Origin: an uncultured virus (IMG/VR IMGVR_UViG_3300033144_005150)
Taxonomy: Duplodnaviria; Heunggongvirae; Uroviricota; Caudoviricetes
Length of the DNA stretch: 64,000 nucleotides
IMG/VR virus record: IMGVR_UViG_3300033144_005150
Strand: one strand, 5' to 3'
The notes beneath the pieces were generated by a model. The model worked only from the letters and a program-made list of their open reading frames with translations. It did not search any database and was not told the origin of the DNA. Position numbers and translations under genes: made by a program. Shown here piece after piece: positions 1,967 through 56,715 of the stretch; position 1 is the first letter of the stretch; each line of letters begins with the position of its first letter.

Positions 1967-2041
1967 GCCCCCGAGGCCGACTGGAGAGGCAAGAGACTTC
2001 TAATCTCGAGGTGGCAGGTTCGATTCCTGTCGGGGGTGCCA
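1967..2041 (+). tRNA. tRNA-Arg(TCT)
   Basis: Cloverleaf, anticodon loop CT-TCT-AA, encoded CCA. Confidence 0.9.
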
Positions 2042-2088
2042 AAGTCTACAACTACTGGGCGAGACCGAAGACAACGGCTCGCCAATTT

Positions 2089-2179
2089 GGAGTCGTGTCC
2101 GAGCGGTCTATGGTGCTCGGTTGCTAACCGAGTGTGGGTTCATAGCTCACCCAGGGTTCGAATCCCTGCGACTCCGCCA
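2089..2179 (+). tRNA. tRNA-Ser(GCT)
   Basis: Long variable arm, CTCGG-TT-GCT-AA-CCGAG, GCCA end. Confidence 0.95.
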
Positions 2180-2187
2180 AACAACAT

Positions 2188-2275
2188 GGAACCGTGTCCG
2201 AGAGGCTTATGGTGCTCGCTTGGAAAGCGAGTGTGGGTAAAACCACCGAAGGTTCGAATCCTTTCGGTTCCGCCA
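2188..2275 (+). tRNA. tRNA-Ser(GGA)
   Basis: Long variable arm, CTCGC-TT-GGA-AA-GCGAG, GCCA end. Confidence 0.95.
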
Positions 2276-2278
2276 AAT

Positions 2279-2369
2279 GGAAGGCCAAGCAGATGGCTGG
2301 CGACTGCACCTGGTTTGAACCCAGACGAAGTGAAAGCTCTTTGGGGTTCGATCCCCCAGCCTTCCGCCA
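2279..2369 (+). tRNA. tRNA-Ser(TGA), atypical D arm
   Basis: Acceptor GGAAGGC/GCCTTCC, loop TT-TGA-AC, long variable arm, GCCA end. Confidence 0.85.
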
Positions 2370-2419
2370 ACAACTTTTCACCCAGGAGACTCAACAAGAA
2401 CGACGACGAACAACAACTT

Positions 2420-2509
2420 GGAAGATTGGCCGAGTCTGGCTTAAGGCACCTGTTTCGAAAACAGACGTGGGTAAAACCACCAGGGGTTCGAATCCCTTAT
2501 CTTCCACCA
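2420..2509 (+). tRNA. tRNA-Ser(CGA)
   Basis: Loop TT-CGA-AA, long variable arm, ACCA end. Confidence 0.9.
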
Positions 2510-2510
2510 T

Positions 2511-2585
2511 GCGGATGTAGCTCAGGGGTAGAGCGCAACCTTGCCAAGGTTGAAGTCGTGAGTTCGAATCTCATTATCCGCTCCA
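2511..2585 (+). tRNA. tRNA-Gly(GCC)
   Basis: Canonical cloverleaf, TCCA end. Confidence 0.95.
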
Positions 2586-2587
2586 AT

Positions 2588-2663
2588 GCGTGTGTAGCTC
2601 AGTCGGTAGAGCGCTAGCTTCCCAAGCTCGAGGCCGCGAGTTCGATTCTCGCCACATGCTCCA
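2588..2663 (+). tRNA. tRNA-Gly(CCC)
   Basis: Loop TT-CCC-AA, TCCA end. Confidence 0.92.
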
Positions 2664-2678
2664 AAAAGGAACGAAACC

Positions 2679-2960
2679 ATGATCACCATCACCAAAATGA
2701 TCGAGACTTGCGGCGGCTGCCCCTCTCAATGGGACGGCTGGGATGAGGGTGGTGCGTACTTCTACTTCCGCTTCCGACACGGCTACCTCCGGGTAGATGC
2801 TCATGATCCCGATGGCCGGCCCTACACGATCCTCGGCAAAGAAGTCGGCGACAGCATGGACGGCATCATGGGCTACGAAGCCCTCAAGTTTCACCTCGAA
2901 GGCGTCCTGGAACTCCCAGACACCGAATCCCTTCCCGACCAGGACGAGCAAGCATCATGA
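2679..2960 (+). CDS. Hypothetical phage protein (CxxCPSQW...YFRFRHG)
   Basis: AAGGA SD; ATGA overlap with the next ORF. Confidence 0.7.
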   Translation: MITITKMIETCGGCPSQWDGWDEGGAYFYFRFRHGYLRVDAHDPDGRPYTILGKEVGDSMDGIMGYEALKFHLEGVLELPDTESLPDQDEQAS

Positions 2961-3166
2961 GCAAGAAAACCATCACCACCTGGGCCCAGTGCAAGTTTCA
3001 GCGTCTCGACACGGATGCCCACATCGAGACGGTAGCCAACATCGACGCGACACACGCCAAGGTGGGACGGCGCATGACTTTCAAGGGCGTCGAAGGGATC
3101 TGGCAAATCAAACAAGCGGGGCAACCCCGCGAACGTCCCAACTTCGGTTGGGGAGGGATGGACTAA
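2957..3166 (+). CDS. Hypothetical protein
   Basis: Start coupled to the preceding stop. Confidence 0.6.
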   Translation: MSKKTITTWAQCKFQRLDTDAHIETVANIDATHAKVGRRMTFKGVEGIWQIKQAGQPRERPNFGWGGMD

Positions 3167-3220
3167 ACCAATGGGGGCAAGAAACTAAGCAAGAACTTCG
3201 AGAAAGTCCGCTCGGTCGGG

Positions 3221-3598
3221 GTGACGCCCGAAGGCAAACAAGTCATCGGGGGAATTTTCCCCATGGTGAGCTCCGAGGGAATCCTCCTCGAAATCATCGT
3301 CCAGGAAATAGACTCCAAGAACTACGTCGTTGACTGGTTCGGGTTCTGGACAGACTCCGTGGAAAACGGTTGGAACCCGCGATCCACACGAACCAAGATT
3401 CTCAATTGCATAGGAGAGCAGTTCGGACCCGTGGTCCGAGAGCAACACGAGAAGCTGCTCGATCTCCTCTACAAAATCGAGATGACCAAGAAGGATGAAG
3501 ACGATTCCAAGATGAGAGAGCTGCTGCTCGAACACCGAAAACTGGAGCAGAAGGAACAGCGAAAACGATTTCTCAACACACTACACAAGCGTGCGTAA
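3221..3598 (+). CDS. Hypothetical protein
   Basis: ORF track; start uncertain; stop lies inside tRNA-Gly(TCC). Confidence 0.5.
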   Translation: MTPEGKQVIGGIFPMVSSEGILLEIIVQEIDSKNYVVDWFGFWTDSVENGWNPRSTRTKILNCIGEQFGPVVREQHEKLLDLLYKIEMTKKDEDDSKMRELLLEHRKLEQKEQRKRFLNTLHKRA

Positions 3599-3665
3599 CT
3601 CAGTGGTTTAGAGTGTCTGCCTTCCAAGCAGAGGGTCGAGGGTTCGAATCCCTCCGCGCGCTCCA
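3589..3665 (+). tRNA. tRNA-Gly(TCC)
   Basis: TCTGC-CT-TCC-AA-GCAGA, TCCA end. Confidence 0.93.
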
Positions 3666-3666
3666 T

Positions 3667-3819
3667 GTTTTCGTAGTTCAATGCCAGAACAGCCGGATAA
3701 CGCCTCCTTCGCGGAGGGGTGCTCGGGCGGAACAGGGCCGGTCATATCCGCGGATAAAATGACCGGTCACTACCGCTGCAAACGAGTGGCAAATGCGGGT
3801 TGGATTCCCGCCGAGAACA
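3667..3819 (+). ncRNA. tRNA-like RNA with an approximately 95-nt structured domain in place of the anticodon loop
   Basis: Acceptor GTTTTCG/CGAGAAC, D arm GTTC/GAAC, stem GCC/GGC, T arm GCGGG-TTGGATT-CCCGC; insert has nested helices. Confidence 0.65.
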
Positions 3820-3825
3820 ACTTTA

Positions 3826-3905
3826 GGGGTACGGGACTGCAAGGGGTGGTCGCTTGATTTGCACTCAGGAAATACAGCAGGGTTCGATTCCCTGGTACTC
3901 CACCA
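3826..3905 (+). tRNA. tRNA-Ala(TGC), atypical
   Basis: G3:U70 pair, loop TT-TGC-AC, ACCA end; non-standard D and variable regions. Confidence 0.8.
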
Positions 3906-3928
3906 AAACGAAACGAAACGAAACGAAC

Positions 3929-4213
3929 ATGGCCAAAGCAATCGAAATCGACGGGGTCCTCTACCGGAAGCGGAGAGGGAAACTCGTGAAGATCCCTGAC
4001 GAGTGGGTGGGCAAAACTGTGGGTCGTCATGCCAAAAGCAAACGGCACTCCAAGACGAAGGCCAAGCGCATCTACACCGGCATCAACCGAGCGAAAGAGC
4101 ACGACCAGCTCCGACACGACGAAGATCCAAACCCGGCCGAGTCCAAACAGTTCGGTCGCTGGCACTACTGCTCGGGTCGCACCGACCAGTACCGAGACAA
4201 GCACAAGTCATGA
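3929..4213 (+). CDS. Small basic hypothetical protein
   Basis: MAKAIEIDGVLYRKRRGK...; preceded by (AAACG)n spacer. Confidence 0.6.
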   Translation: MAKAIEIDGVLYRKRRGKLVKIPDEWVGKTVGRHAKSKRHSKTKAKRIYTGINRAKEHDQLRHDEDPNPAESKQFGRWHYCSGRTDQYRDKHKS

Positions 4214-4404
4214 GTCAGAAGATCAACTACCGTCGAGATGCGAAGCGCCATCAGGACAACGGACCCACCTACGAAGGTGGCCCTCCGAACTCCGGCTGCA
4301 ACTCGACACACGTCGCCCGATCTCGTCGGGGCTGGCGGAACATCCGGCGTCGAAAGGAACGGCGCCAAGAGCAACAAGAGATCAAGCAGCAAATGGGACA
4401 TTAG
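4210..4404 (+). CDS. Small Arg-rich hypothetical protein
   Basis: MSQKINYRRDAKRH...; ATGA overlap; stop inside tRNA-Ala. Confidence 0.55.
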   Translation: MSQKINYRRDAKRHQDNGPTYEGGPPNSGCNSTHVARSRRGWRNIRRRKERRQEQQEIKQQMGH

Positions 4405-4470
4405 CTCAGTTGGGAGAGCGCCTGCCTTGCAAGCAGGAAGTCGTCGGTTCGATTCCGACATGTTCCACCA
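4395..4470 (+). tRNA. tRNA-Ala(TGC)
   Basis: Canonical cloverleaf, G3:U70, ACCA end. Confidence 0.95.
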
Positions 4471-4594
4471 GCCATGTACGAGAACGAAAACGAAGTATGG
4501 CTTAGCCTCGATTGGGGGGCGCTCGGACGCCTCGGGGTCTATGTAGATCCTTGGCCGATGGGAGCCATCCCACCAAACGACGGAAGATACGAAG

Positions 4595-4969
4595 ATGGAA
4601 ATTTCACGAACACAACTAATCGATCACCTGGGCAGCATGACTGTCATGGAGATGTGCGACCTGACCCGAGACCTTGAGGAGACCTGGGGAGTCTCGGCAA
4701 CGCCGCAGATCACCCAGACCACGGGAGCTCCGACAGGGGAGCCCGCTCCTGAGCAGACCGAGTTCGACGTGATCCTCGAAAGTTTCGGGGAGAAGAAGAT
4801 CCCCGTCATCAAGACGCTCCGTGCGGAGATGCCGGGACTCGGTCTCAAGGAGGCCAAGTTCCTGGTGGAACAAGCACCTGCACCGATCAAGGAAGATGTC
4901 TCAAAGGAAGAGGCTGAAAATCTCAAGGCCGAGCTCGAGAAGGCGGGCGCGACGGTCACGATCAAGTAA
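4595..4969 (+). CDS. rplL: 50S ribosomal protein L7/L12 (bL12), full length
   Basis: N-domain ...[22 protein letters not shown]-domain EQTEFDVIL...KIPVIK...GLGLKEAK...[11 protein letters not shown]. Confidence 0.95.
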
Positions 4970-5001
4970 CGTACAAGCCCCCGATCTTCGCGGGGGCACA
5001 T

Positions 5002-5077
5002 GGGGTGGTAGCTCAGATGGGAGAGCATCGCACTGGCAGTGCGAAGGTCAAGGGTTCGATCCCCTTTCACTCCACCA
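5002..5077 (+). tRNA. tRNA-Ala(GGC)
   Basis: TCGCA-CT-GGC-AG-TGCGA, G3:U70, ACCA end. Confidence 0.95.
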
Positions 5078-5225
5078 GTTTTTTCACTCGCCACAGGAAT
5101 GGTCTTGTGGCATCATGGGTCCTGAGAGAGACCAGCAAATCACTCTCACGGGTCTGAAGCCCGGTAAGAGCCGCAGCCATTTCGGAGCGGTACGGGTAGG
5201 CGAAAGCCAAGGAGAGAGACGCAAG

Positions 5226-5291
5226 ATGGAACACATTCAAGTAAACAAGAACTTCTGGTGTAGCTGGTATCCCACGGGGGAAACCGGGTAA
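5226..5291 (+). CDS. Putative Trp/Cys attenuator leader peptide (21 aa)
   Basis: AAGGAGAG upstream; MEHIQVNKNFWCSWYPTGETG*; TGG-TGT-AGC-TGG at 5256-5267. Confidence 0.75.
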   Translation: MEHIQVNKNFWCSWYPTGETG

Positions 5292-5315
5292 GCACAGCCG
5301 CATCTTGCGCTGTAA

Positions 5316-5345
5316 GCCGCCCGGTCTCTGGACCCGGCGGCTTTT
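5316..5345 (+). terminator. Attenuator terminator upstream of tRNA-Trp/Cys/Trp and trpS
   Basis: GCCGCCCGGTC-TCTG-GACCCGGCGGC-TTTT; its 5' arm can alternatively pair with ACCGGGT at 5283-5289. Confidence 0.75.
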
Positions 5346-5353
5346 CTCGTTCT

Positions 5354-5428
5354 GGGGTATTAGCTCAGCTTGGTAGAGCGGTGGTCTCCAAAACCGCGAC
5401 AGCGGGGGTTCAAATCCCTCATGCCCTA
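5354..5428 (+). tRNA. tRNA-Trp(CCA), G1:U72/A73, no encoded CCA
   Basis: GTGGT-CT-CCA-AA-ACCGC anticodon arm. Confidence 0.85.
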
Positions 5429-5434
5429 CAACAT

Positions 5435-5510
5435 GGCTCGATGGCCGAGTGGCTTTAGGCACCGGATTGCAACCCCGGTTAGATCAGTTCGATTCTGATT
5501 CGAGCCTCCA
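5435..5510 (+). tRNA. tRNA-Cys(GCA)
   Basis: Loop TT-GCA-AC, U73, CCA end. Confidence 0.92.
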
Positions 5511-5523
5511 ATTTCAACTTCAT

Positions 5524-5594
5524 AGGTCGCGGTCTGGGACCGGGCGAGACTCCAAATTTTGCCTAGCAGGGTTCGATCCCCTGGTGGCCTGCCA
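5524..5594 (+). tRNA. tRNA-Trp(CCA), short with miniature D arm
   Basis: A1:U72, G73-CCA, GGTC-TGG-GACC D arm, loop CT-CCA-AA. Confidence 0.75.
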
Positions 5595-5615
5595 ACCAAC
5601 GAAAGGACGGACAAC

Positions 5616-6602
5616 ATGAATCGAATACTGACTGGGATCCAGCCCTCGGGAGAGCTGCATCTTGGGAACTACTTCGGGGCCGTGCAGCCCTGTCTTCGAC
5701 ACCAGGAAAATCCGTCTTCGGATCTCTTGATGTTCATCGCGGACTACCACGCTCTGACGACCGTGCATGACGGGGTCCTTCTTTCAAGGAACTCGCTCAA
5801 CTTGGCCGAGGGCCTCCTCGCTCTGGGAATCGATCCCGAGCAGACGATCCTCTTCCAGCAGTCAGATGTCGAGTACGTCGCCGAGCTGACCCTGTTGCTC
5901 ACGATGGTCACGGGGATGGGCACCCTCCAGCGGTCTCCGTCCTACAAGGACAAGGTTGCCAAGGGGATTACCCCGAGCGTCGGGTTGTTCATCTACCCGA
6001 TGATCATGGCGGCCGACATCCTGCTCTACCAGAGCGACATCGTTCCGGTCGGCAAGGACCAGACCGCGCATGTCAAGATGGCTCGACAGATAGGCACGCA
6101 CTTCAACGAGACGTTCGGCCCCGTGTTCAACCTCCCCAAAGCCGTCCTCTCCGAAGTCCCTAAAGTGCCCGGTCTCGACGGGGAGAAGATGAGCAAGAGC
6201 TACGGCAACACCATCTCCGTGTTCGATCGCGGAAACACCCTGCGGGCCAAACTCGCCGGCATCAAAACCACCTCAACCCCTTTCGGAGAACCACTTCCCA
6301 TTGACGACTGCCATCTTTTCGAGCTGATCAAGCTCATGTGCTCCACCAGCGCCGAGCTCGAGGAAGTCACCCAGTTTTTCCGGACAGGCCGACGTGGCTC
6401 CCAGAAGTTCGGATACGGCCACGCCAAGGAGCTGCTGGCCGAAAAGATCGAAACCACTTTCGCCGAAGCGAATGAGCGCCGGCAGGATTTTCTCCCCCAT
6501 CGCATCGAGGTCATAGGAGCCCTGAGTCAGGGCGCGACCAAAGCACGGAGGATCGCAAAGGAAACCCTCGACAAGTGCCGATCCCTCTGTGGCATCGGCT
6601 AA
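5616..6602 (+). CDS. trpS: Tryptophanyl-tRNA synthetase
   Basis: TGIQPSGELHLGNY, YPMIMAADILL, VPVGKDQ, KMSKS motifs. Confidence 0.95.
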   Translation: MNRILTGIQPSGELHLGNYFGAVQPCLRHQENPSSDLLMFIADYHALTTVHDGVLLSRNSLNLAEGLLALGIDPEQTILFQQSDVEYVAELTLLLTMVTGMGTLQRSPSYKDKVAKGITPSVGLFIYPMIMAADILLYQSDIVPVGKDQTAHVKMARQIGTHFNETFGPVFNLPKAVLSEVPKVPGLDGEKMSKSYGNTISVFDRGNTLRAKLAGIKTTSTPFGEPLPIDDCHLFELIKLMCSTSAELEEVTQFFRTGRRGSQKFGYGHAKELLAEKIETTFAEANERRQDFLPHRIEVIGALSQGATKARRIAKETLDKCRSLCGIG

Positions 6603-7849: not shown

Positions 7850-8116
7850 CTAGGAGCGGTTGCCCCCACGCGGCTTGTCGTTGGCCGGCTGGATGTTGAC
7901 GTTGCGCCCGTCGAGGCTGATCGATGCAGCTTTGATCGCCGCTTCGGCACCAGCCGCTTCCTTGAACGTGACGAACCCGAAACCCTTGGATTTGTTGGTG
8001 TCGCGATCCATCACGATTTTCACTTCTTCGACCGGGCCGAAGTCGGTCATGGCCATTTGCAGGCCGAGATCATCAGTTGCCCACGCGAGGCCGCCACAGA
8101 AGACTTTGTTTGCCAT
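7850..8116 (-). CDS. RRM (RNP-1) RNA-binding protein
   Basis: RNP2 KVFCGGL; RNP1 KGFGFVTF. Confidence 0.92.
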   Translation of the reverse strand: MANKVFCGGLAWATDDLGLQMAMTDFGPVEEVKIVMDRDTNKSKGFGFVTFKEAAGAEAAIKAASISLDGRNVNIQPANDKPRGGNRS

Positions 8117-9316: not shown

Positions 9317-9341
9317 AAAGGGGACCCGAAGGTCCCCTTTT
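9317..9341. terminator. Bidirectional terminator
   Basis: AAAAGGGGACC-CGAA-GGTCCCCTTTT between convergent genes. Confidence 0.8.
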
Positions 9342-12346: not shown

Positions 12347-12584
12347 GGACTTCGTCAGTTTCGGCCGCCCATGTACTTGACGCAGTAGTCCATGAACTCC
12401 GGAGGGTCCATGCGCTCGAACTCATCGCAGCGTGGTTCTTGGTGAAAACACGCACGTATCCATCGCGCTCGATCCACTTACCTTCCCATGCCTTAAGTCC
12501 GCATGGGCAACTGAACTCGGTCACATTGACGAGTTTGATGTCCCCGAGGCCCTCCACGGTGACGGTGGTTTCGGTTTCCGTCAT
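12321..12584 (-). CDS. Hypothetical protein
   Basis: GGAG-preceded ATG overlapping the ARH stop; MTETETTVTVEG... Confidence 0.55.
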   Translation of the reverse strand: MTETETTVTVEGLGDIKLVNVTEFSCPCGLKAWEGKWIERDGYVRVFTKNHAAMSSSAWTLRSSWTTASSTWAAETDEVRAPDRSSD

Positions 12585-13765
12585 GACTCCTCCGAGGTCC
12601 GGCTTGCCTCCCAAGCTGCCAGTCGTTCGGCGTACTGGCTTTCCACGATGCCGTGCATGGTCTCGGTCAGCTCGCCCAAACCTTCCCAGGTCCACTGCTC
12701 GGCCTTGATGTCGTGGACGACGGGGGCGACGTGTTCGAGCACCTCTTTCGGGAACTTCTCGACCCCGATGTTGGCCCCCACGATGGTCGCAGCCATGGCC
12801 GCGATGGTGTCGGAGTCTCCTCCCACGGCGATGGCGGTCGTGATGGCCTTCCACACGTCCGTAGGAGCCGCCATGACGCAGTAGAAAGCCCACAGCGTCG
12901 AGCTGCGCGCCCAGGGGCTCACGCCCTCCCAGGAGGCGTCGTCGCCTTCCAGGACGAAGTCACGGGCCGCTGCGAACTCGTCGTCTCCGGCCTTCCACTT
13001 GACCGTCTTGCGACCGTCCCAAACGATCTTGGTCAGATCACGGATGTCCTGGGCGAATTCCTCGTGGTTCGTCTGGACGTGGGCCGCCAGCCAGTTCCAC
13101 CAACCGGGCTCGTGCGGGCCCGTGGTGCTCTCACTGGCGGTCAGCGCCATCGCGGTCGCCACGGCCATACCCACTCCAGCCGCGACGGATATCGGAGCCT
13201 TGTGCGTGATGATGGCTTGTTCGGCTGCAGCTTTCACGCAGGTCGGAACGTCGTGGTAGTAGAACATGCCGATCGGGCCAGCTCGCATGGCGGCTCCGTT
13301 GCCGGCTCGAGGGGGCGGAGTTCCGGCCTCGTCCCAGGGCACACCGTCGAGCAGACGGATGGCCGCTTGTTGGGTGGCTCCTCCGTATCCCACGATGGCG
13401 TCCTGAGCGAAGAGTTTGGCCACGCGATCGGCGAAGTCCTGGGGCACGAACTCGTTCTCATCGATCAGGGAGATCATGAGCTCCCGGCTGAGTTGCGTGT
13501 CGTCGGTGTACTGGCCGAAGCGCATCCCGTGGTGGTGTGTCCCGATGCTGTCGAAGTCGAACTCACCGAGGGTGGCTGCGAAGTCACGGGCCTCTGAGGC
13601 AGGGCGACGTTCGGCCCAGGCGCCCACGGAGTCTCCGAGCGCACAGCCAAGGAGGGCACCTTGGTAGCGGCTCAGGGAGGCTGGAGCGACGGGAGGGATG
13701 GCGTCTGGATCGGGTCCGATGGTGCGGACTTCGTTAGCCGGGGTGTGGATGCTTCGTACGTTCAT
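12581..13765 (-). CDS. ADP-ribosylglycohydrolase (DraG/ARH family)
   Basis: GALLGCALGD, YTDDTQ, GNGAAMR, GDSDT. Confidence 0.92.
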   Translation of the reverse strand: MNVRSIHTPANEVRTIGPDPDAIPPVAPASLSRYQGALLGCALGDSVGAWAERRPASEARDFAATLGEFDFDSIGTHHHGMRFGQYTDDTQLSRELMISLIDENEFVPQDFADRVAKLFAQDAIVGYGGATQQAAIRLLDGVPWDEAGTPPPRAGNGAAMRAGPIGMFYYHDVPTCVKAAAEQAIITHKAPISVAAGVGMAVATAMALTASESTTGPHEPGWWNWLAAHVQTNHEEFAQDIRDLTKIVWDGRKTVKWKAGDDEFAAARDFVLEGDDASWEGVSPWARSSTLWAFYCVMAAPTDVWKAITTAIAVGGDSDTIAAMAATIVGANIGVEKFPKEVLEHVAPVVHDIKAEQWTWEGLGELTETMHGIVESQYAERLAAWEASRTSEES

Positions 13766-14024
13766 GTCTGTTTCGTTTCGTGGCTTCGTCAATGCAATGT
13801 TGACGAAACTCGGGGTCACTGTGGTAGCGGTCGTGCTTGCGGTTTCGTTCGGTTTCCCGAATTTGATCGCCGTTCTTTTCCTTGTACTTGGCCTGCCGCA
13901 CCGAAGCCTCGAACCGGTTGCATTCGAGACAGATGTTGCGAGGGCGACGGGTGCCCTTCGCGTCCTTGTAGAACGCGAAGGTTTCGTCGGGTCCTTCGTG
14001 GGGGCAGTGCAAGCATTTTCTCAT
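13734..14024 (-). CDS. Small zinc-finger protein
   Basis: CLHC...CLEC followed by a basic helix; ATGA overlap with the nrtR stop. Confidence 0.6.
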   Translation of the reverse strand: MRKCLHCPHEGPDETFAFYKDAKGTRRPRNICLECNRFEASVRQAKYKEKNGDQIRETERNRKHDRYHSDPEFRQHCIDEATKRNRHERTKHPHPG

Positions 14025-15299: not shown

Positions 15300-15515
15300 T
15301 CAGTACCCCGGTTCTTTGTAGTTGTCCCAGTTGGTGCTCAGCGTCGCACCTTCGGGGAGCAGGAGTTGAACGGCCTTGTGGGTCTTGGCCTCGAGTTCGC
15401 TGTTCCGTTTGGTGAGCTCTTCGCATCGCTGCTCCGAGGCGGCCAACTTCCGTCTGGTGTCGGCCAGCTCCATTTCAGTGGTGCGCAGCTTTCGGCGTGT
15501 CTCGTCGATGTTCAT
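15300..15515 (-). CDS. Small coiled-coil protein
   Basis: Coupled ORF within the operon. Confidence 0.55.
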   Translation of the reverse strand: MNIDETRRKLRTTEMELADTRRKLAASEQRCEELTKRNSELEAKTHKAVQLLLPEGATLSTNWDNYKEPGY

Positions 15516-17203
15516 TTCATCTTCATCCTGTAGAGCTTGTTGCCCCGGAAGAACTGGAGCTGGCCCTGGTTTTTCACGAGCCGCATGTCACCACCGAGCA
15601 CCGGGTCCTCGATGGTCTTGACCGAGGTTGAGCCCTTGCGGGACGAGAAGAGCTCGATCTGCTCGTCTTCGTTGAGGCAGACGCACACGCCCGAGTCGAG
15701 CGTCACGAAGTTCAGGCCGGTCGCGGTCACGTCCTCGACCTTGCGCACGTCGTAGCTGGCGTAGTCCTTGTCGAAGCGAAACACGAAGCGGTGGTACTTG
15801 CCCTTCTCGGCCGCGACCACCATGAGCACACCGCTGTCGAACTTGGCTTCGACGATCTTGTACCCCTTGAGTTCGGACACGTTGAACTGGTAGCAGGCGC
15901 CGGGACGCGGGAACAGACTGACGTGGGGCTCTCCCAGAAGGCTCTGGATGGCGACCCCTTCGTAGAGCCGGCAGGCGTTCTCCAACACGTTGGCTGCGAG
16001 CCGAGCGCCCGCGACCGTCTTGTTTCCCGCCTGGGTGAACGTGAGTTCGAGAATCTGATCTCCGTTGCGGATGTAGATCGTCTCGCCCGTGGACATCATC
16101 TCGTCTGCGTTGAGCGTCAGATCGAGAGGCTGCTGCGTGGTGACGTTGACGGGTGTCACCGTGTTCGAGTTGGGTGCCGGGAACACCACGATGGGATGCC
16201 CGTGTTGCGGCGTGAACCCGATGGTCGGTGCGCCTTTCCAGACGCCGACCTTGCGTTTGTCCAGGTAGAGATCGGTGCCCGCGTGGACGACCATGTGGCC
16301 CCCACCGACGAACACGGCTCGGATCTCGTTCTGGAACTCGTGGAGTTCGGTGATGTCGAAATTGTTGGTGCCGCTGATTTGACGAAACACCGGACGGATC
16401 GTGATGACACCGTGGAGCCCGGTAGGTGGCTCGACGCGTTTGCCGTCCACGAACATGGCTTGAAACCAATCGCGGTAGATGTCTGGAATCACGTCGAACG
16501 GGTAAGCCACTTTGGGCACCCTGACACTCGAATCGAACACGGAGACGTTGGCTCCCATGCGCGCCTCGAATCCCTTGAGGGTCGGGTGCTTGCCCTTGAA
16601 CGGGTGGATGCCGACGAGCAGTTGGAAGCTGACGATGCCGAACGAGTACCAGTCCGACAGGGACGTGAAATCGACGCCCTGGACGAGTGGGTCCTGAACG
16701 GAAGGCATGATAGCCGTCGCGGGGTAGCGGGCCGTCTGGTAGCTGTCCACGTCGATGAAGTACGGGGTCGAGAAATCCTTGCTCACCAGGAAGTTCATCT
16801 CGTTGAGATCCACAATGAGGACCCCGGCCTTGTGGACGGCCTCGACGCCTTCCTGGAGCTTCCGTACGAGCTTGATGGCCATGTCGTGGGTGAAACCCTC
16901 CCGCTCACGGAACGCCCGTGGGAAGAGCTGACAGAGTGTCCAGGCGTCCTTCACGAAGCGGAAGGTGTGGCCGACGTGCTGTCCCTTCTGGCCCTTGTAG
17001 AGCGCGTCCTGGGGCCTGATGACGTTGGGGTCGGAGATGCCCGACAACTCCTGGATCTTGCCCACGGGGATGGCCCGTTTGGGATCGTGAAAAATCTTGT
17101 AGCCGGTCTGACCACGAGCGTAGACCTTCCCCTCACCACCTTCGGCGACGAAGTGGGTCTTGGTCAGGTTGACCTCTGGCTGCCCTTTGATGAAGACCTT
17201 CAT
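15512..17203 (-). CDS. Ser/Thr protein kinase (TerY-P/YegI-like)
   Basis: EGGEGKVY, KIF, IVDLNEMNFLV, IDVDSYQ, GIHPFKG. Confidence 0.88.
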   Translation of the reverse strand: MKVFIKGQPEVNLTKTHFVAEGGEGKVYARGQTGYKIFHDPKRAIPVGKIQELSGISDPNVIRPQDALYKGQKGQHVGHTFRFVKDAWTLCQLFPRAFREREGFTHDMAIKLVRKLQEGVEAVHKAGVLIVDLNEMNFLVSKDFSTPYFIDVDSYQTARYPATAIMPSVQDPLVQGVDFTSLSDWYSFGIVSFQLLVGIHPFKGKHPTLKGFEARMGANVSVFDSSVRVPKVAYPFDVIPDIYRDWFQAMFVDGKRVEPPTGLHGVITIRPVFRQISGTNNFDITELHEFQNEIRAVFVGGGHMVVHAGTDLYLDKRKVGVWKGAPTIGFTPQHGHPIVVFPAPNSNTVTPVNVTTQQPLDLTLNADEMMSTGETIYIRNGDQILELTFTQAGNKTVAGARLAANVLENACRLYEGVAIQSLLGEPHVSLFPRPGACYQFNVSELKGYKIVEAKFDSGVLMVVAAEKGKYHRFVFRFDKDYASYDVRKVEDVTATGLNFVTLDSGVCVCLNEDEQIELFSSRKGSTSVKTIEDPVLGGDMRLVKNQGQLQFFRGNKLYRMKMK

Positions 17204-17439
17204 GGGGTCACCTGGGTGCAGGTTGCGGGTTCGTGGGGTGCGTACCAGTCTCCACTAGGGGTTCGTTCCGGAGCCGGCTCGGGGGTGCCAGCGCCCGGAG
17301 AAACCTGCCGAACTTTGCAGACAGAACATACGGCGAAGGGTTGGCCTGCCGTATGTTGGACCCACTGATGCGGACCCGTGTAAGGGTTTGGATCCGGGTT
17401 CCCCGAAGTGAAAACCTGGATATTTCCTCCGCTAGACAT
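17200..17439 (-). CDS. Small hypothetical protein (CxxC)
   Basis: Fills the gap between phosphatase and kinase with overlapping ends. Confidence 0.5.
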   Translation of the reverse strand: MSSGGNIQVFTSGNPDPNPYTGPHQWVQHTAGQPFAVCSVCKVRQVSPGAGTPEPAPERTPSGDWYAPHEPATCTQVTP

Positions 17440-18307
17440 TGGGGTCCTCCATCCAGATGGCGGCGGCTGAGAAATCGTCGTAGTGCTGCCAGTTGTGGGT
17501 GACGCAGTGACGGGTGAGGAACTTGTGGCACCGGCGCTTGAGGAACTCGCCTTTGGTGCCTTTGATCTTGAGAAGATGACGGACTACCTCTTCCATTGGG
17601 ATGTCCACAAGGTTACGGCTCGTGCCGTCCTCGACCATCTGTTGGAACGTCTGGACACCGTCGGACAGCACCATTACGAGATCGTAAGTCTCGGCGTCGA
17701 AGAACCAGTCATCGGGGTGACCGTTAAATTCGGCGTAAAGGCTCGGCTCCCATCCGTCCTTGGGGCGGTCGTGACCGAACTTGGAGGCGTACGTTCGGAC
17801 AGCGCTCTTGTCCCCGAACTTTTTCATGTAGCCTTCGAGACGTTTTGAATCCAGATCGTAATTCAAATACTGGGGGGCGTTGTGTTCGTGGTCGATGGTG
17901 AAAATGAAAAAATCACCGTCTCGCATCCGAGCAACAACAACGCCGTCGCCACGCATCGAAACCTGGACGCCTTCCTTGCCGTCCTTCTCGACTCGGTACG
18001 CAGCAACGACGGTGGCATCCAGAGCCCGATTACCGACCTTGGCAGCGGACAAGGCCATGTAGGCGTAGTTCGCTGCGGTATTCATCACGCGGTCCGCGGA
18101 GTACCTCCCAGTGCAGAGATCCTCGATTTGGAATGCCAGGGAGGTCGCCAAGGCACGAGCCCCGATGTCGGTGTCTGGAGACGAGGAGCAACCGTCACAG
18201 ACGATCGCGTACGGGTGACGGTCGTCGGTGAACCCCGCACGAGCGTAGTCCTCACAGACCATGTGGCTCTTCCCAATGGAGAAGAAAGCATCGGCGTTCC
18301 ACCCCAT
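17432..18307 (-). CDS. PP2C-like phosphatase (YegK-like)
   Basis: GKSH..CEDY, VCDGCSS, LSDG, DDFS. Confidence 0.88.
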   Translation of the reverse strand: MGWNADAFFSIGKSHMVCEDYARAGFTDDRHPYAIVCDGCSSSPDTDIGARALATSLAFQIEDLCTGRYSADRVMNTAANYAYMALSAAKVGNRALDATVVAAYRVEKDGKEGVQVSMRGDGVVVARMRDGDFFIFTIDHEHNAPQYLNYDLDSKRLEGYMKKFGDKSAVRTYASKFGHDRPKDGWEPSLYAEFNGHPDDWFFDAETYDLVMVLSDGVQTFQQMVEDGTSRNLVDIPMEEVVRHLLKIKGTKGEFLKRRCHKFLTRHCVTHNWQHYDDFSAAAIWMEDPNV

Positions 18308-18759
18308 TAGAGCACCCCCAGTTTCTGGAGACGCTCGGCGTTCTCCCGTCCGTAGGGACCTTCGAGGAGTTTGTAGATCGGCCCCCATTCGACGGGTGCC
18401 TCGTGCTCTGCGACCTTGAACGTCTCTGGGAGATCCATGCCGGTCGTATCGAGCAGGTAGAACGTGGTGAAGTAGCCACCCGAATCGAACAGTGTGCCCT
18501 GGGTGATGAGCCGTGTTGTGGGCACCGGGTAAAGCCCGTCGCGACGTGTTGACTGCTTGAGATCGATACCTGTCTCTTCAAGGAGCTCCCGGCAAGCTGC
18601 GAGGGGACTGCTCTCTCCAGGATCGACCTTTCCTCCGGGGAGGCTCCACTTGGTGTTGTCGTCCTTGCGGGCGACGAGCACGGCTTCCCACTTCCCCTCC
18701 ACGTCGGAGTTTTGACGAAGGACGATGATGGCGACGGCGAATCTGGCTGGAGTGATCAT
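18307..18759 (-). CDS. Nudix hydrolase
   Basis: Nudix box PGGKVDPGE...ACRELLEETG. Confidence 0.9.
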   Translation of the reverse strand: MITPARFAVAIIVLRQNSDVEGKWEAVLVARKDDNTKWSLPGGKVDPGESSPLAACRELLEETGIDLKQSTRRDGLYPVPTTRLITQGTLFDSGGYFTTFYLLDTTGMDLPETFKVAEHEAPVEWGPIYKLLEGPYGRENAERLQKLGVL

Positions 18760-21522: not shown

Positions 21523-22593
21523 CTACAACTTCGGAAGCTCGTTGGTCAGGATGCCGGCCTCGACGAGTTCCTTGCGGGAGCCGAGCGACGGGCAGTTGGG
21601 GTTCATCTTGTGGCGGGTGCTTCGTTCCCATTTGTTGGCAGAGACGACGTGCTCAGGTGTGAGGCCGGCTTCTTTTGCCAGATCGAGGAACTTTTGTCGG
21701 CCTTTCATGACGTTGGGCTTCTCGGACTGCATGACCCCTTCCCATGAGTACGAGAAGAGCGCCTTTTCCATGGTGATTTCCTCTTTCACGAACCCGAACA
21801 GTGTGCCCAGATCTCGTGTGTACTCGAAAGACTCATCCAAGCACCGGCTCATGGCCTCGATGGTGCCGACGCGGACGTACTCGTTGGTGTCCACGTTGAT
21901 GCGGCTGTAGGTCCACGCGACGCCCGAGAGCTTGAGCAACTCGGCCTCGTCGTTGTGCTGTTCACCGACGCCCCACAGATCAGGGGTGGGAAGTGCTTCG
22001 ACGATCTCGCGAGGCACGTTCAGTGCGACGGCCAGCTGGTCGACCTCACCCTTGCTGAGCATGGCCAGCGGGTTCGTGTCCACTTCGCCGTCCCCACCCT
22101 TCTGGTAGAAACGGAGCCAGCGGTCCTCACACTCGTTGCCGGTGCCGTGACGGATGCCACCACCGCTCATGCGGTTCACGTAGCGCCCAACGGGAGCACG
22201 CAAAGTGGAGCGGAGTGAGCCGTCTACGGAGGCGTCACCCTCCATGAACTTCACGATGATGTCGGTGTCGTAACCGGCCTCCCCGAATGCACGCATGGCT
22301 TCCAGGCCGATGGCCTCGAAAATGTCCCCGAGCTCCAGTTCAAGGAGCTTGACGCCGGCCGCTTTCGCGACGAGACGCGCTCGATCTCTGGATTCGGTGG
22401 ACGAGTTGATGCTCGAGTAGGCCGCGGTCACGTTGTCAGGGCCGAGGGCCTTGACCAGAAGCATGAGCATGACTGCGGAGTCGATGCCGCCAGACACATC
22501 CAGTTCGGCGCGAGGTATTCCCGCGTTCGAGTGGTAGCTACGGATGGCTTCGACACGGTTGGTGATCAGGGCGTCATTGTTGAGTACGGGCAT
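21523..22593 (-). CDS. nadE: NH3-dependent NAD+ synthetase
   Basis: SGGIDSA, GTGNECE, FYQKGGDG, PTPDL. Confidence 0.9.
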   Translation of the reverse strand: MPVLNNDALITNRVEAIRSYHSNAGIPRAELDVSGGIDSAVMLMLLVKALGPDNVTAAYSSINSSTESRDRARLVAKAAGVKLLELELGDIFEAIGLEAMRAFGEAGYDTDIIVKFMEGDASVDGSLRSTLRAPVGRYVNRMSGGGIRHGTGNECEDRWLRFYQKGGDGEVDTNPLAMLSKGEVDQLAVALNVPREIVEALPTPDLWGVGEQHNDEAELLKLSGVAWTYSRINVDTNEYVRVGTIEAMSRCLDESFEYTRDLGTLFGFVKEEITMEKALFSYSWEGVMQSEKPNVMKGRQKFLDLAKEAGLTPEHVVSANKWERSTRHKMNPNCPSLGSRKELVEAGILTNELPKL

Positions 22594-22596
22594 CGT

Positions 22597-24081
22597 TCAG
22601 GCTCCTGTGAGTTGGTCCACCAGGGTTTGCGTGGCGGGTGAAAGGGTGAGTTCCGGGACGGGCACATCGGCCGCTTTCCCATCGTTGAGCATGCCGTCCG
22701 CGTTCGTGATGCGGATCCTTTCCCCGGCACCTTCCTCGAAAAGATCCATGTAGTCCTCGATCTCCTCCCCACGCTGGCCAACGATGCTCAATGGGCCGTT
22801 GCCACGGAGGCGCCGGAAGGTGGTGGGTTTCCCTGGGACCGAGCGTTTGCCGATACCCACGTCGTCCCCCATCTTCATGGTGGGTTCACCACCGCTCTCA
22901 CAGAGCTTGTAGACCGCAGCCACCTTCCCACGACGCAAGTCCGTAGGAAGCGTGGCTGCGGTGAGCTGTCCACCGATCATGTAACTGAGGCGGTTCGGCT
23001 CCCAGTCAGAGAGTTTCCGGAGTTGCTCGAACTTCCGAATCATCTCCGCGTTTACGTCGCCTGCGACGTTGATGATGACGTTGTCTACGCCAGCCTCTTT
23101 GAACCGGTTCGCGCAGTACATGAAGTAGGAAGCGCGGTCTCCTGAATCGAGGCGGAACAGGAACTGGCGCTCAGGCCGGCTCTTGGCGATGCGGATGGTC
23201 TCGGGAAGGCCCGAGTCCAACGTGCTCCAGGTATCTGCGAGACACGACACGAGGCCGCACACGCGGTCAGCGTAGTTGGTGTAGGCCACGCGGTCCGAGC
23301 CACATCGTTGCGAGTGCTCGTGTCCTGCGGTGCCCGAAGGGATGAGGCCGCGTCCAACTTCACGGGCGCCTTCCACGTTGGAAGTCCGAACAATGCCGTA
23401 CTCGGCACAGACTTCGAGCACCATGCGGTGATGCTCGGAACAGATCGCTGAGCGTAGACCACCCTCAACGATGCGCAGTCCAACGTCCCCGCCGTCGAGT
23501 GCAGAGACAATGTCTCGAGCGGTCTCGTGGAGCGTCTCCCGGTACTCGTCGTCGATGCGCTCGATAGGGTGGCTCTCTTCGCCGAAACCAACCGCCTCGA
23601 AGACCGAACGAATGACTGCCTCGTGTTCGGCGTTGATGGCCTTGATGGGCTCTTTGCCTGCCTTGTTCCATTGGTAAAGCCACGTTGCCAACTGGATCTG
23701 GTAGTTGAGCATCGTGATGTTTCCTTCGGGCTGCGATGCCACGAACGAAGGAGCCTCGACCGCGAGGATGGGTTCCTGGTTGCAGACCCAGGTGCCTTTG
23801 GAAACGGACTCGACAAGGGCCTCTCCACGCAGGGCCTCTCGCATGGCTTCGGTCAGCCGGTAGTTGTTGCCCGCGAGGTAGTCCGCTTCCTGCTCGAACT
23901 CTGTGCGAGTGAGATCGGTAGGGGCCGTGGGGAGGAGATTCTTGACCAGTGTCTTGAGGTCTAGATCGACGTACTGCCAACCGCCCCGACGGAAAGAGAA
24001 GTAGAACCGCTCGCGTCGGAGCGGGTAGCCGGCCTGAGCCATGCTGAACTTGTAGCCATCGGTACGGAGAAGGTTGGTCAT
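22597..24081 (-). CDS. pncB: Nicotinate phosphoribosyltransferase
   Basis: TDGYKFSM, GLR, TSNV, GTAGHE, RLDSGD, VYKL; resembles NAPRT more than NAMPT. Confidence 0.8.
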   Translation of the reverse strand: MTNLLRTDGYKFSMAQAGYPLRRERFYFSFRRGGWQYVDLDLKTLVKNLLPTAPTDLTRTEFEQEADYLAGNNYRLTEAMREALRGEALVESVSKGTWVCNQEPILAVEAPSFVASQPEGNITMLNYQIQLATWLYQWNKAGKEPIKAINAEHEAVIRSVFEAVGFGEESHPIERIDDEYRETLHETARDIVSALDGGDVGLRIVEGGLRSAICSEHHRMVLEVCAEYGIVRTSNVEGAREVGRGLIPSGTAGHEHSQRCGSDRVAYTNYADRVCGLVSCLADTWSTLDSGLPETIRIAKSRPERQFLFRLDSGDRASYFMYCANRFKEAGVDNVIINVAGDVNAEMIRKFEQLRKLSDWEPNRLSYMIGGQLTAATLPTDLRRGKVAAVYKLCESGGEPTMKMGDDVGIGKRSVPGKPTTFRRLRGNGPLSIVGQRGEEIEDYMDLFEEGAGERIRITNADGMLNDGKAADVPVPELTLSPATQTLVDQLTGA

Positions 24082-52495: not shown

Positions 52496-53044
52496 ATGGC
52501 GGAAGTGGCCTACCAAGGACTCCAGATCACAGATCTGATTGGCGTTTTCTACGAAGAGAACGGCCGCATCATGGTGGCTGACGAGTTCGACGGCGCACGG
52601 GACGTGATCGAGGTCGTGCAGGCCATCGAAGCCGACGACCTGCGTCTCCTGGCCCACCACCGTCCTGTGGAGCCCATGAACAAGGAGCGGTGGGGAGGCG
52701 GCTGCTGCTTCCTCGAAAACATCGGGCACTGTCACTTCGGCCATCACGAAAAACCGTTGGACCTCTACACGTTCAACGCCGTGGGGGCCGTTCGAGTAGA
52801 AGGGATGAAGATGTTCATCGACACTCGGGAGGGCGAATCCGAAGAGTGCCTCCTGCATTTCTTGGCCGGCCACCGGTCACAGATCGTTGTTACGTCTATT
52901 CCCAACCTTGATGAGTTGGACGAGAAGGTGAAGTCGTTCGACCCTTCCAACATCGACAATCCCAACCTCGAAAACTTGACCGACCGCCTTTCTGAACTAC
53001 GCGACTTCATGTCGAAGATGAACGACCTTAAGAACAATTTGTGA
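52496..53044 (+). CDS. Hypothetical protein
   Basis: ORF track; WGGGCC...CHFGH. Confidence 0.65.
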   Translation: MAEVAYQGLQITDLIGVFYEENGRIMVADEFDGARDVIEVVQAIEADDLRLLAHHRPVEPMNKERWGGGCCFLENIGHCHFGHHEKPLDLYTFNAVGAVRVEGMKMFIDTREGESEECLLHFLAGHRSQIVVTSIPNLDELDEKVKSFDPSNIDNPNLENLTDRLSELRDFMSKMNDLKNNL

Positions 53045-56000: not shown

Positions 56001-56715
56001 CATCGTGATCGCGGCCCATGCCATCAACAGGGGTGACGTGCCCAAATTCGAGCATCGGTCCAAGGATTTCATCGTTGTCGAAGTCAGGAACGAGGACCGG
56101 ATTCTTGAGACGCTGACTTCGACGGTTCAGAAACTGTACGACCGTGAGACCAACTTCCAGGTCCTGAGCCCTCGACACAGCGGAACTTTGGGAGTGACGA
56201 ACTTGAATCTTCGGATTCGTGAATTGCTCAATCCCAAGGCTGCGGCGCTCAAAGAGATGAGGCTCGGTCCGGAGACTATTCGCGAGGGGGATCGCGTGAT
56301 GGTTTCCAAGAACAACTACCGGTACGAGATTTTCAATGGTGACGTAGGCAAGGTTGTTCGTCTTGATCAGAAGGCAAAGATCGTGACGTTCAAGATTCAC
56401 GGTCCTCCTACGATGCACGTCCAGATGTCGTTCAAGGATGCGCCGAAGTACCTGCGCATGGCCTACTGCGTCACGGTGCACAAGAGCCAGGGGCAGGAAT
56501 ACGACGTAATTCTGATGCCTTGGTCGAGTTCGTTCCGGCACCAGCTTCAACGGAACTTGCTGTACACGGCCATCACTCGGGCTCGTAAAAAGGTCATTTT
56601 GATCGGGCATCCCGAGGCGGTTGCAAGGGCTATCGGGAATAACAAGGTGGGTGCTCGCAACACGCTTTTTCCCGAACGGCTTGGTGAAGTTCTTGGTGAA
56701 TTAAAGGGCCCCTGA
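53041..56715 (+). CDS. recD2: RecD2-like helicase with intein
   Basis: GLPGTGK, APTG.AA, IVDESSM, GD..QL, TVHKSQG. Confidence 0.92.
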   Translation: MMPDYYAGRVQAVVWANDAQSFYVMKMALDGDGDLDEVAASVTVRGNVPGLAVQKGTWFGFEAKWENHDKYGRQLAIQKAPVLKDGWDTETALKMLESHGVGIRTCNALYDHFGDGLMDALKDADELQKVSSISKFSALHIVSRWQTVRAMFQSLEFLGDLRLPKNKVEQIYSHFGDDTEKALSEDPWSLVQIDGISFDQADEVARRLGLNLAAETRLRGAALYTCKSKRGMGHLYLTSGELVQGITSAAPEVNKSQIAHVLKQLHDENLMVLDNKTRPGTMAIYEPWFHSLEVESAVLLAERQEQAQFDDEGRAEYLELLGTVGPKSEAAAEADGASLADVARTAILEWSEHGNLKLAENQLNGAVNALVEPVSVLTGLPGTGKCVVPGTLVGSRGLRPIGEFLPEDLPVDDQRDLEVPIDTSKGVRQTGYVYNGGVQPTVRLTTSSGYTLEGTFEHPIRVVEDGAVVWKKLGDLDLKSIPVLVRGGYSFGVSPKLPLLREGDSREKRYRAPSRMGDSLAQLLGYLVSEGTTTDPKTLTVTNHDPRVQRILKDTIQHLFGYRGREQYDSRTDQVVGIRVHSVQLRKWFGETGLGYGDAYDKEVPWSILQATKGEIRAFLRALFEGDGSVSADRFSVEYGTRSTRLATQVHILLLALGIVSSLRVEQRESHPSKSKEQQEKKPWFRISLYGEDYDRFRDQIGCDFKEFPPRTSESNTNRHLIYARDLINTLMEEVKPAKGHAYNLFYRYAKGKGPHARRPSRTHLEKLLAMAKPSETTEALRSLMRPEFFYDTVRSLEHGESQVVDFGVPEGHEFLSNGFISHNTTTLKVVVKVLQDANVPFLLVAPTGIAAKRLTSVTGAEASTIHRAFGAKGMDTDNDREATYAGIVGASGGAMTEDGSKEFWSYSSKNPHPAKVVIVDESSMVDQHLLFRLLTCTARDCRVVFVGDAAQLPSVGPGNVLRDIIMSKFFPVVDLQEIFRQHEASDIVIAAHAINRGDVPKFEHRSKDFIVVEVRNEDRILETLTSTVQKLYDRETNFQVLSPRHSGTLGVTNLNLRIRELLNPKAAALKEMRLGPETIREGDRVMVSKNNYRYEIFNGDVGKVVRLDQKAKIVTFKIHGPPTMHVQMSFKDAPKYLRMAYCVTVHKSQGQEYDVILMPWSSSFRHQLQRNLLYTAITRARKKVILIGHPEAVARAIGNNKVGARNTLFPERLGEVLGELKGP
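54196..55512 (+). mobile_element. Intein with LAGLIDADG endonuclease in the RecD2 P-loop
   Basis: GTGK|CVVP...FISHN|T; LGYLVSEG and LFEGDG blocks. Confidence 0.92.

Follow-up and report, generated by a model that had tools for sequence, protein, structure and literature searches.

The 64,000-nt sequence of an uncultured virus (IMG/VR record IMGVR_UViG_3300033144_005150; its whole length is referred to here as the window) contains what is likely, on folding models and comparison with relatives, a ribosome-mediated (leader-peptide) transcription attenuator gating the genes for tRNA-Trp, tRNA-Cys, a tRNA-like element and tryptophanyl-tRNA synthetase (TrpRS, the product of trpS) of a huge phage. 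Production of these tRNAs and of TrpRS is probably confined to conditions in which ribosomes lack tRNA charged with Trp or Cys. What the analysis shows directly is which sequence features are present, how far they are conserved and that the helices exclude one another thermodynamically; the coordinates of all features are collected in Table 1.

The element occupies the 276-nt spacer between the end of a tRNA-Ala(ggc) gene (5077) and the start of the tRNA-Trp gene (5354). The window is GC-rich and has 14 co-directional tRNA calls in an array spanning 1967-5594 (ARAGORN). The spacer has a minimum free energy (MFE) of -106.5 kcal/mol (z -2.95; 1 of 200 shuffled sequences was equally stable), and its MFE fold contains both hairpin 1:2 and the terminator described below. 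Nucleotide comparisons use the window, a 2590-nt contig of run X3 (the X3 variant) and L081, the IMG/VR record G001 (618,736 bp; CheckV completeness 92%), whose TrpRS is 69% identical to that of the window. The layout is the same in L081, where 8 nt separate the terminator from tRNA-Trp and the tRNA-Cys and trpS genes come next.

Leader reading frame and its conservation

The original prediction, made from the window sequence, described a 21-aa open reading frame (ORF) with Trp and Cys codons followed by genes for tRNA-Trp, tRNA-Cys, a second tRNA-Trp and TrpRS. The ORF at 5226-5291 is present as described, carries the motif Trp11-Cys12-Ser13-Trp14, and is preceded by a Shine-Dalgarno (SD) sequence with about 10-11 nt between AAGGAG and the ATG at 5226. 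The tRNA-Trp, tRNA-Cys and TrpRS genes likewise stand, and the second tRNA-Trp is doubtful, having no Rfam hit and being absent from L081. The Trp and Cys of the motif are the amino acids of both adjoining downstream tRNAs and of the synthetase, in the window as well as in L081, and the Cys codons match the tRNA-Cys gene only, since no cysteinyl-tRNA synthetase gene was found in the L081 record. Trp/Cys clusters of such strength are present in 4 of the 594 small ORFs (sORFs) of the window that start with ATG, and in 28 of 6434 in the L081 genome (0.4-0.7%).

Conservation was assessed over seven leader peptides from related lineages, those of the window, the X3 variant and L081 and four from ORF calls in other relatives (P0121, P0123, P0128 and P0129). 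Trp11, Cys12 and Trp14 are kept in all seven (7/7) and codon 15 encodes Cys in six, an outcome that bears out the conservation of leader Trp and Cys codons that had been suggested as a check on the original prediction. Start, stop and frame are retained in 7/7 variants, and a single in-frame 3-nt indel leaves the stop in place; codons 3-6, 9-10, 13 and 17-20 are variable, and the differences between the window and L081 have no third-position bias. The L081 leader comprises an SD, an ATG and 22 codons (one 3-nt in-frame insertion) with the peptide MERNDNNKNFWCNWCPQGEEIG, and that of the X3 variant reads MEHIQVNKNFWCSWCPLEETG. The other four are longer in-frame ORF calls, ending ...MEHIQANKNLWCNWCPLEETG in P0121 and ...MERNLNNK(K/N)LWCNWCP(I/N)REVIG in P0123, P0128 and P0129. 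Coding constraint begins at the ATG, because the frame 5' of it in P0123 is unlike those of the window and P0121.

Contig sizes provide circumstantial evidence that these four leader ORFs are linked to TrpRS genes as in the window. The P0121 contig (2851) has the same size as that of TrpRS cluster P0008 (80% identity), and the P0123, P0128 and P0129 contigs (16043, 16057 and 16063) have the same sizes as those of TrpRS cluster P0015 (66% identity). Protein searches with the leader ORF returned P0121 as the sole match, and a search of representatives returned seven matches, P0123 among them. For P0122 and P0124-P0127 (455-1732 aa) the match is confined to the non-coding upstream part of the leader profile.

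Mutually exclusive helices and ribosome position

The predicted terminator (3:4) lies immediately ahead of the gated genes, with its stem ending 10 nt before tRNA-Trp and its U tract ending 1 nt 5' of it. A 3:4 hairpin with a U tract was part of the original prediction and is found in the MFE fold with its stem at 5314-5343. The hairpin alone has a stability of -21.1 kcal/mol in the window and of -21 to -22 kcal/mol across the three nucleotide sequences, and all 12 pairs are invariant in 3/3. It was missed by a simple consensus terminator scan and listed by dedicated hairpin scans. Elsewhere in the window, hairpins built alike are found after gene-length ORFs, for example those with ends at 45868 and 52371, and between two converging ORFs (9317-9340), from which intrinsic terminators seem to be in use.

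The competing antiterminator (2:3) exists as originally proposed, although its extent had been drawn too short, as 5283-5289 with 5319-5325; the full structure spans 5280-5328. Its 5' strand corresponds to codons 19-21 and the U of the UAA, so that the stop codon does lie on segment 2, and its 3' strand consists of the terminator 5' strand and part of the terminator loop. The antiterminator has a stability of -23.8 kcal/mol in the window, -30.2 kcal/mol in the X3 variant and -28.1 kcal/mol in L081. Shuffling of the 5' part gave -13.5 +/- 2.8 kcal/mol for the window and -14.2 +/- 2.9 kcal/mol for L081, with 3/1000 and 0/1000 shuffled sequences, respectively, as stable as the natural one. Hairpin 1:2, pairing 5264-5273 with 5278-5287, was also recovered, in the spacer MFE fold; its outer five pairs are kept in 3/3 sequences and its inner pairs are weaker in the X3 variant and L081.

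Two further features had been missed by the original prediction. One is the conserved 5' domain at 5117-5215; the other, at the start codon, is a helix that joins 5221-5228 to 5301-5308 and so encloses the ORF. All eight pairs of this helix are kept in L081, two of them as G-U, and from the folds it is a candidate anti-antiterminator in the untranslated leader, where part of the antiterminator would be tied up in it.

The effect of ribosome position was modelled in the three sequences with an assumed footprint that reaches 15 nt upstream and 14 nt downstream of the first base in the aminoacyl-tRNA (A) site, using nascent folds (of RNA transcribed as far as the terminator loop) and equilibrium folds. 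In the nascent folds of 3/3 sequences the antiterminator forms when codon 11, 12 or 14 occupies the A site. When the stop codon does so the antiterminator is impossible, structure of -2.4 to -4.2 kcal/mol is left, and the terminator strand is free (3/3). Which of the two helices forms in these folds depends on ribosome placement, in agreement with the mutual exclusivity put forward originally, and the antiterminator appears when the codon region is occupied, a fold that had likewise been proposed as a check. At equilibrium, the probability of the terminator in L081 is 0.009, 0.000 and 0.082 with the A site on codons 11, 12 and 14 and 0.944 on the stop codon; the corresponding values for the X3 variant are 0.45, 0.10, 0.23 and 0.999, and those for the window are all >=0.97. 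The window retains its terminator in all states because A5282, which is replaced by G in both the X3 variant and L081, opposes C5326. The switch of the window is visible only in nascent-transcript folds, and on this modelling its decision would be kinetic, as in classical attenuators.

Among terminator-like hairpins, 19 in the window and 150 in the L081 genome, the Trp/Cys element is the sole one with an SD-preceded sORF before the hairpin and tRNA genes <=600 nt after it, and the other tRNA blocks of the window and the L081 genome have no attenuator under this sORF/tRNA filter. The element thus appears to be a dedicated switch and not a general trait of these tRNA arrays.

Table 1. Coordinates of the leader features and the downstream genes in the window.
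Feature	Coordinates	Strand	Basis and remarks
Hairpin just 3' of tRNA-Ala(ggc)	5090-5111	+	MFE fold; shorter hairpin in L081
Conserved 5' leader domain	5117-5215	+	Spacer alignment to L081, 85% mean column identity
Shine-Dalgarno AAGGAG of leader ORF	5209-5214	+	Sequence; kept in L081
8-pair helix enclosing the ORF and covering the AUG	5221-5228 (GCAAGAUG) with 5301-5308 (CAUCUUGC)	+	MFE fold and no-ribosome nascent fold of the window
Leader ORF, 21 codons, MEHIQVNKNFWCSWYPTGETG; stop TAA 5289-5291	5226-5291	+	Preceded by SD
Regulatory codons UGG UGU AGC UGG UAU	5256-5270	+	Codon 15 is Cys in 6/7 variants
Hairpin 1:2	5264-5287 (5264-5273 with 5278-5287)	+	MFE fold; sequesters the antiterminator 5' strand when no ribosome stalls
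Antiterminator 2:3	5280-5328 (5280-5289 with 5319-5328; inner 5292-5298 with 5309-5317 and 5300-5302 with 5306-5308)	+	
Intrinsic terminator (predicted)	5314-5353	+	12-pair GC-rich stem 5314-5343, one mismatch, 6-nt loop, then UUCUCGUUCU
tRNA-Trp (cca)	5354-5429	+	ARAGORN; Rfam tRNA 55.4 bits
tRNA-Cys (gca)	5435-5510	+	ARAGORN; Rfam tRNA 51.4 bits
Atypical tRNA-Trp-like element (cca), doubtful as tRNA	5524-5594	+	ARAGORN only; cloverleaf z -0.36
trpS, tryptophanyl-tRNA synthetase, 328 aa	5616-6602	+	Pfam PF00579 tRNA-synt_1b, E 1.5e-49; KMSKS present

The conserved 5' domain contains the repeat GAGAGAGAC at 5123-5131 and, in a second copy overlapping the SD, at 5212-5220, with CUCUC (5142-5146) in between; pairing of CUCUC with either copy is a possible SD-masking switch. 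Over 5001-5800 the X3 contig differs from the window at 20 positions, and all of the listed differences fall within 5035-5282, with none in the next 518 nt. Five cluster at 5269-5282, within hairpin 1:2 and the antiterminator 5' strand, a pattern resembling the boundary of a recombination event or a hot spot local to the switch. The hairpin at 5090-5111 has two pair-preserving changes in the X3 variant (A-U to G-U and G-U to G-C) and two changes in its loop. A 227-nt contig of run X9, an RNA library, covers 5130-5356 with no differences, so the leader stretch is present in a metatranscriptome; the contig indicates presence and no more, and is consistent with transcription without showing it. 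Its ends at 5130 and 5356 come from one study and were not used as 3'-end evidence. Over 5427-5800 run X9 has no contig identical to the window, an absence that carries no weight as evidence.

Proposed mechanism and competing explanations

In the proposed mechanism RNA polymerase would transcribe the leader and a ribosome would load at the SD and AUG (5209-5228). With charged tRNA-Trp and tRNA-Cys in ample supply, the ribosome would reach the stop codon (5289-5291) and cover the antiterminator 5' strand (5280-5298), upon which the terminator (5314-5343) and its U tract would form and transcription would end ~1-10 nt before tRNA-Trp. When either charged tRNA is short the ribosome would stall on UGG-UGU-x-UGG(-UGY) at 5256-5270, covering segment 1 and leaving 5280-5298 free; the antiterminator (5280-5328) would then form before the terminator 3' strand is made, with read-through into the tRNAs and trpS. 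In an untranslated leader, hairpin 1:2 and the 5221-5228/5301-5308 helix would hold parts of the antiterminator, giving termination by default. Candidate triggers are amino-acid starvation, heavy demand for Trp and Cys codons, and destruction of tRNA-Trp or tRNA-Cys by host toxins.

Amino-acid biosynthesis is the textbook setting of leader-peptide attenuation, and the phage element shares with E. coli trpL a short SD-preceded ORF, clustered regulatory codons, mutually exclusive 1:2, 2:3 and 3:4 helices, and a stop codon at segment 2; the distance from the first Trp codon to the U tract is ~90 nt, close to that in E. coli trpL. An Rfam cmscan of 4900-5700 (E<=10) returned no T-box and no leader family (Trp_leader), its matches being three tRNAs above the gathering score and eight weak unrelated ones. 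On these comparisons the element would belong structurally with the trpL-type attenuators, while by sequence it is a member of no Rfam leader family. It differs from trpL-type elements in that its cargo consists of tRNA genes and a synthetase instead of biosynthetic enzymes, that it senses two amino acids (Trp and Cys) matching two tRNAs, that it is situated inside a huge-phage tRNA array, and that it has a conserved 5' domain and a helix at the start codon in addition.

Control of synthetase genes by leader peptides has precedents in cells. A metagenome contig of cellular type (L006, 2372-2500) has a leader MKRTNISGWWWSGSGRR and a GC hairpin with UUUUGUUUUU, followed ~35 nt on by trpS; from its sequence this appears to be a textbook Trp attenuator (WWW leader) on a synthetase gene, and its TrpRS is 45% identical to that of the phage. 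Excerpts of Seliverstov et al. 2005 (PMC1262725) describe attenuation predicted for trpS and leuS in Streptomyces, and for E. coli pheST. The Streptomyces trpS attenuators resemble the phage element in leader-peptide control of a synthetase gene and in their UGG codons (PMC1262725, same excerpts), and, within what these excerpts cover, the trpS/leuS and pheST cases differ from it in being cellular, in using Trp codons only and in having no tRNA genes between terminator and synthetase. The literature search, which covered one full-text library, returned no published leader-peptide control of tRNA genes and no such element in a phage. As far as can be judged from sequence, what is new is a cargo of tRNA genes first and then their cognate synthetase, a two-amino-acid leader matching two tRNAs, and the huge-phage setting.

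Several observations weigh against attenuation. At equilibrium the window's own sequence favours the terminator in every ribosome state, as the values given above indicate, and the default-off state is not uniform, because untranslated RNA of L081 and the X3 variant prefers the antiterminator in nascent folds; the untranslated equilibrium probability of the terminator is 0.06 in L081 versus 0.86 in the X3 variant. An A site on codon 15 already blocks the antiterminator under the assumed footprint, and 10-11 nt is a long distance between SD and AUG. No two-sided compensatory change is present in any helix pair of the three nucleotide sequences: the terminator is without variation, and the changes in the antiterminator either affect one side of a pair or move the pairing register, a comparison that is underpowered because there are only three sequences and the terminator is invariant. 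UGG has no synonym, and therefore conservation of Trp codons is indistinguishable from conservation of the RNA sequence. Asn7, Lys8, Pro16 and the last Gly are also invariant, and a pure codon sensor needs none of them. Termination, stalling and read-through in vivo, and the trigger, are inferred, and the model supposes that the phage uses an RNA polymerase that obeys intrinsic terminators.

The conservation of the leader could have other origins. The 230-nt stretch might be a small non-coding RNA that has a terminator of its own, or just the terminator of an upstream rplL/tRNA-Ala unit, with an incidental ORF; the 5' domain is conserved at least as well as the ORF, the RNA-library contig covers 5130-5356, the Trp codons are inseparable from RNA sequence, and small RNAs derived from attenuators are known, as described in part in the report on rnTrpL of Sinorhizobium (PMC6614838). 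We nonetheless regard this explanation as improbable, given that all seven variants retain the SD, the start, the reading frame and the stop despite an in-frame indel and many non-synonymous changes, that the Trp/Cys motif fits the downstream tRNAs, that the antiterminator overlaps the end of the ORF as a ribosome switch needs, and that there is no Rfam family match. A non-coding RNA would also be compatible with attenuation, because a terminated leader can act in trans; as with rnTrpL of Sinorhizobium meliloti, the terminated leader could persist as a discrete RNA (comparison from the same part of PMC6614838). The T-box, which would sense uncharged tRNA-Trp directly, is a type of riboswitch that controls trpS and other synthetase genes in Firmicutes (PMC1262725, in excerpt), and the leader does have a conserved, structured 5' domain; with no T-box or other cis-regulatory match in 4900-5700 at E<=10, and with the SD, AUG and conserved ORF left unexplained, such a riboswitch is extremely improbable here.

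The amino acids beyond the regulatory codons raise the further prospect of a functional micropeptide, or of an arrest peptide that acts through the nascent chain, as TnaC does, by way of Asn7-Lys8, W-C-x-W-C-P and the terminal Gly and not by decoding speed. Met1, Glu2, Asn7, Lys8, Pro16 and the last Gly are invariant in 7/7, which exceeds what regulatory codons need. The seven variants, however, all represent lineages that are fairly closely related (TrpRS 66-100% identical). Positions 3-6 and 17-20 are free to vary, a terminator/antiterminator design does not require the peptide to have a function, and part of the conservation is explained by RNA structure, because the CCC of Pro16 pairs with GGG in hairpin 1:2. 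On this evidence we consider a peptide function distinctly improbable.

If the attenuator operates as proposed, the phage would measure shortage by the speed of ribosomes on codons of the very tRNAs being gated, in place of blind expression, and it would be a small, clean case of two amino acids, two tRNAs and one synthetase that is directly testable with a reporter. The carriage of tRNAs and synthetases by phages is debated as codon supply versus escape from tRNA-targeting defence (PMC10264068, in part). A speculative and on balance unlikely extension of the attenuator is that it serves as a phage-borne sensor of host decoding capacity, inducing replacement tRNA-Trp, tRNA-Cys and TrpRS when a defence system or toxin depletes them, and that the terminated ~230-nt leader is also a trans-acting small RNA. 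The L081 record also has a CCA-adding enzyme and two tRNA ligases of the RtcB type, and mycobacterial toxins that cleave tRNA-Cys only, or deplete tRNA-Trp, are described in portions of PMC13096801 and PMC13657306.

Phage relatives and neighbouring genes

L081 belongs to a huge phage, since terminase, portal and other virion proteins were found in it. A PHROGs scan of 92 long ORFs of the record identified a terminase large subunit (5e-22), a portal (1.9e-32), a virion structural protein and a tail fibre, along with an endolysin, a UvsX-like recombinase, GroEL, and the RtcB ligases and CCA-adding enzyme mentioned above; the Pfam families Terminase_6N, Terminase_6C and Phage_capsid had no match in it. 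Its 54 tRNA genes are grouped by amino acid and include a block Arg-Ser x4-Gly-Ala-Trp-Cys in the order of the window. The window itself has no virion gene, and from this synteny and the gene content shared with L081 it appears to be phage-like. The L081 record also has an elongation-factor-like ORF and an ARAGORN call with undetermined anticodon (388039-388113).

Close metagenome homologues of TrpRS number 31 (P0002-P0032; 58-85% identity). A metagenome scan with the TrpRS alignment returned at least 80 further loci with <=48% identity that are presumably cellular, among the matches listed; upstream of such relatives an sORF with W..W is present in 7/81, as it is in 7/81 of the antisense controls, again among the matches listed. 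An isolate-phage database yielded 17 records with tRNA-gene matches only, 0 of them covering 80% of the query. A search of IMG/VR with the single TrpRS had no match, and a pattern scan of genome contigs had 0 matches. Pattern scans of IMG/VR gave 119 and 37 matching stretches, and blastn against 219 and 256 loci left the L081 contig as the sole true relative. A promoter consensus scan found none near the leader.

The element at 5524-5594, originally counted as a second tRNA-Trp, gives no match to the Rfam tRNA model at E<=10 and has no counterpart in L081. It has an acceptor stem of 7-8 bp, a D loop of 3 nt, an anticodon stem of eight pairs, a good T arm and a 3' end of G-CCA, and is positioned just 5' of the ribosome-binding site of trpS; candidate identities are a decayed tRNA and an operator for TrpRS that resembles a tRNA. 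The tRNA-Trp of the window has G1-U72 and discriminator A, and that of L081 (2810-2885) has A1-U72 and discriminator G; G73 is an identity element for bacterial TrpRS. Ahead of the array, at 1600-1690, the window has a stretch resembling a T arm (ccaggttcgactcctgg) and, after it, a T run; no tRNA is called there, and it may be a tRNA remnant.

The tRNA array also contains a gene for ribosomal protein bL12 (4595-4969; both Pfam domains, Ribosomal_L12 4.7e-28), with a GC hairpin (4977-4997) directly after its stop codon; an unrelated ORF is at the matching place in L081. Elsewhere in the window a RecD2-like helicase (53041-56715) and RecA (59758-62439) each contain an intein bearing a LAGLIDADG domain (Pfam). 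Leftwards-oriented genes (- strand) include those for an 88-aa RRM-domain protein (7850-8116) and an ADP-ribosylglycohydrolase (12581-13819), as well as a protein kinase-like ORF (15512-17203) and a PP2C phosphatase-like ORF (17432-18388). Matches to NAD synthetase and nicotinamide phosphoribosyltransferase are located at 21523-24081.

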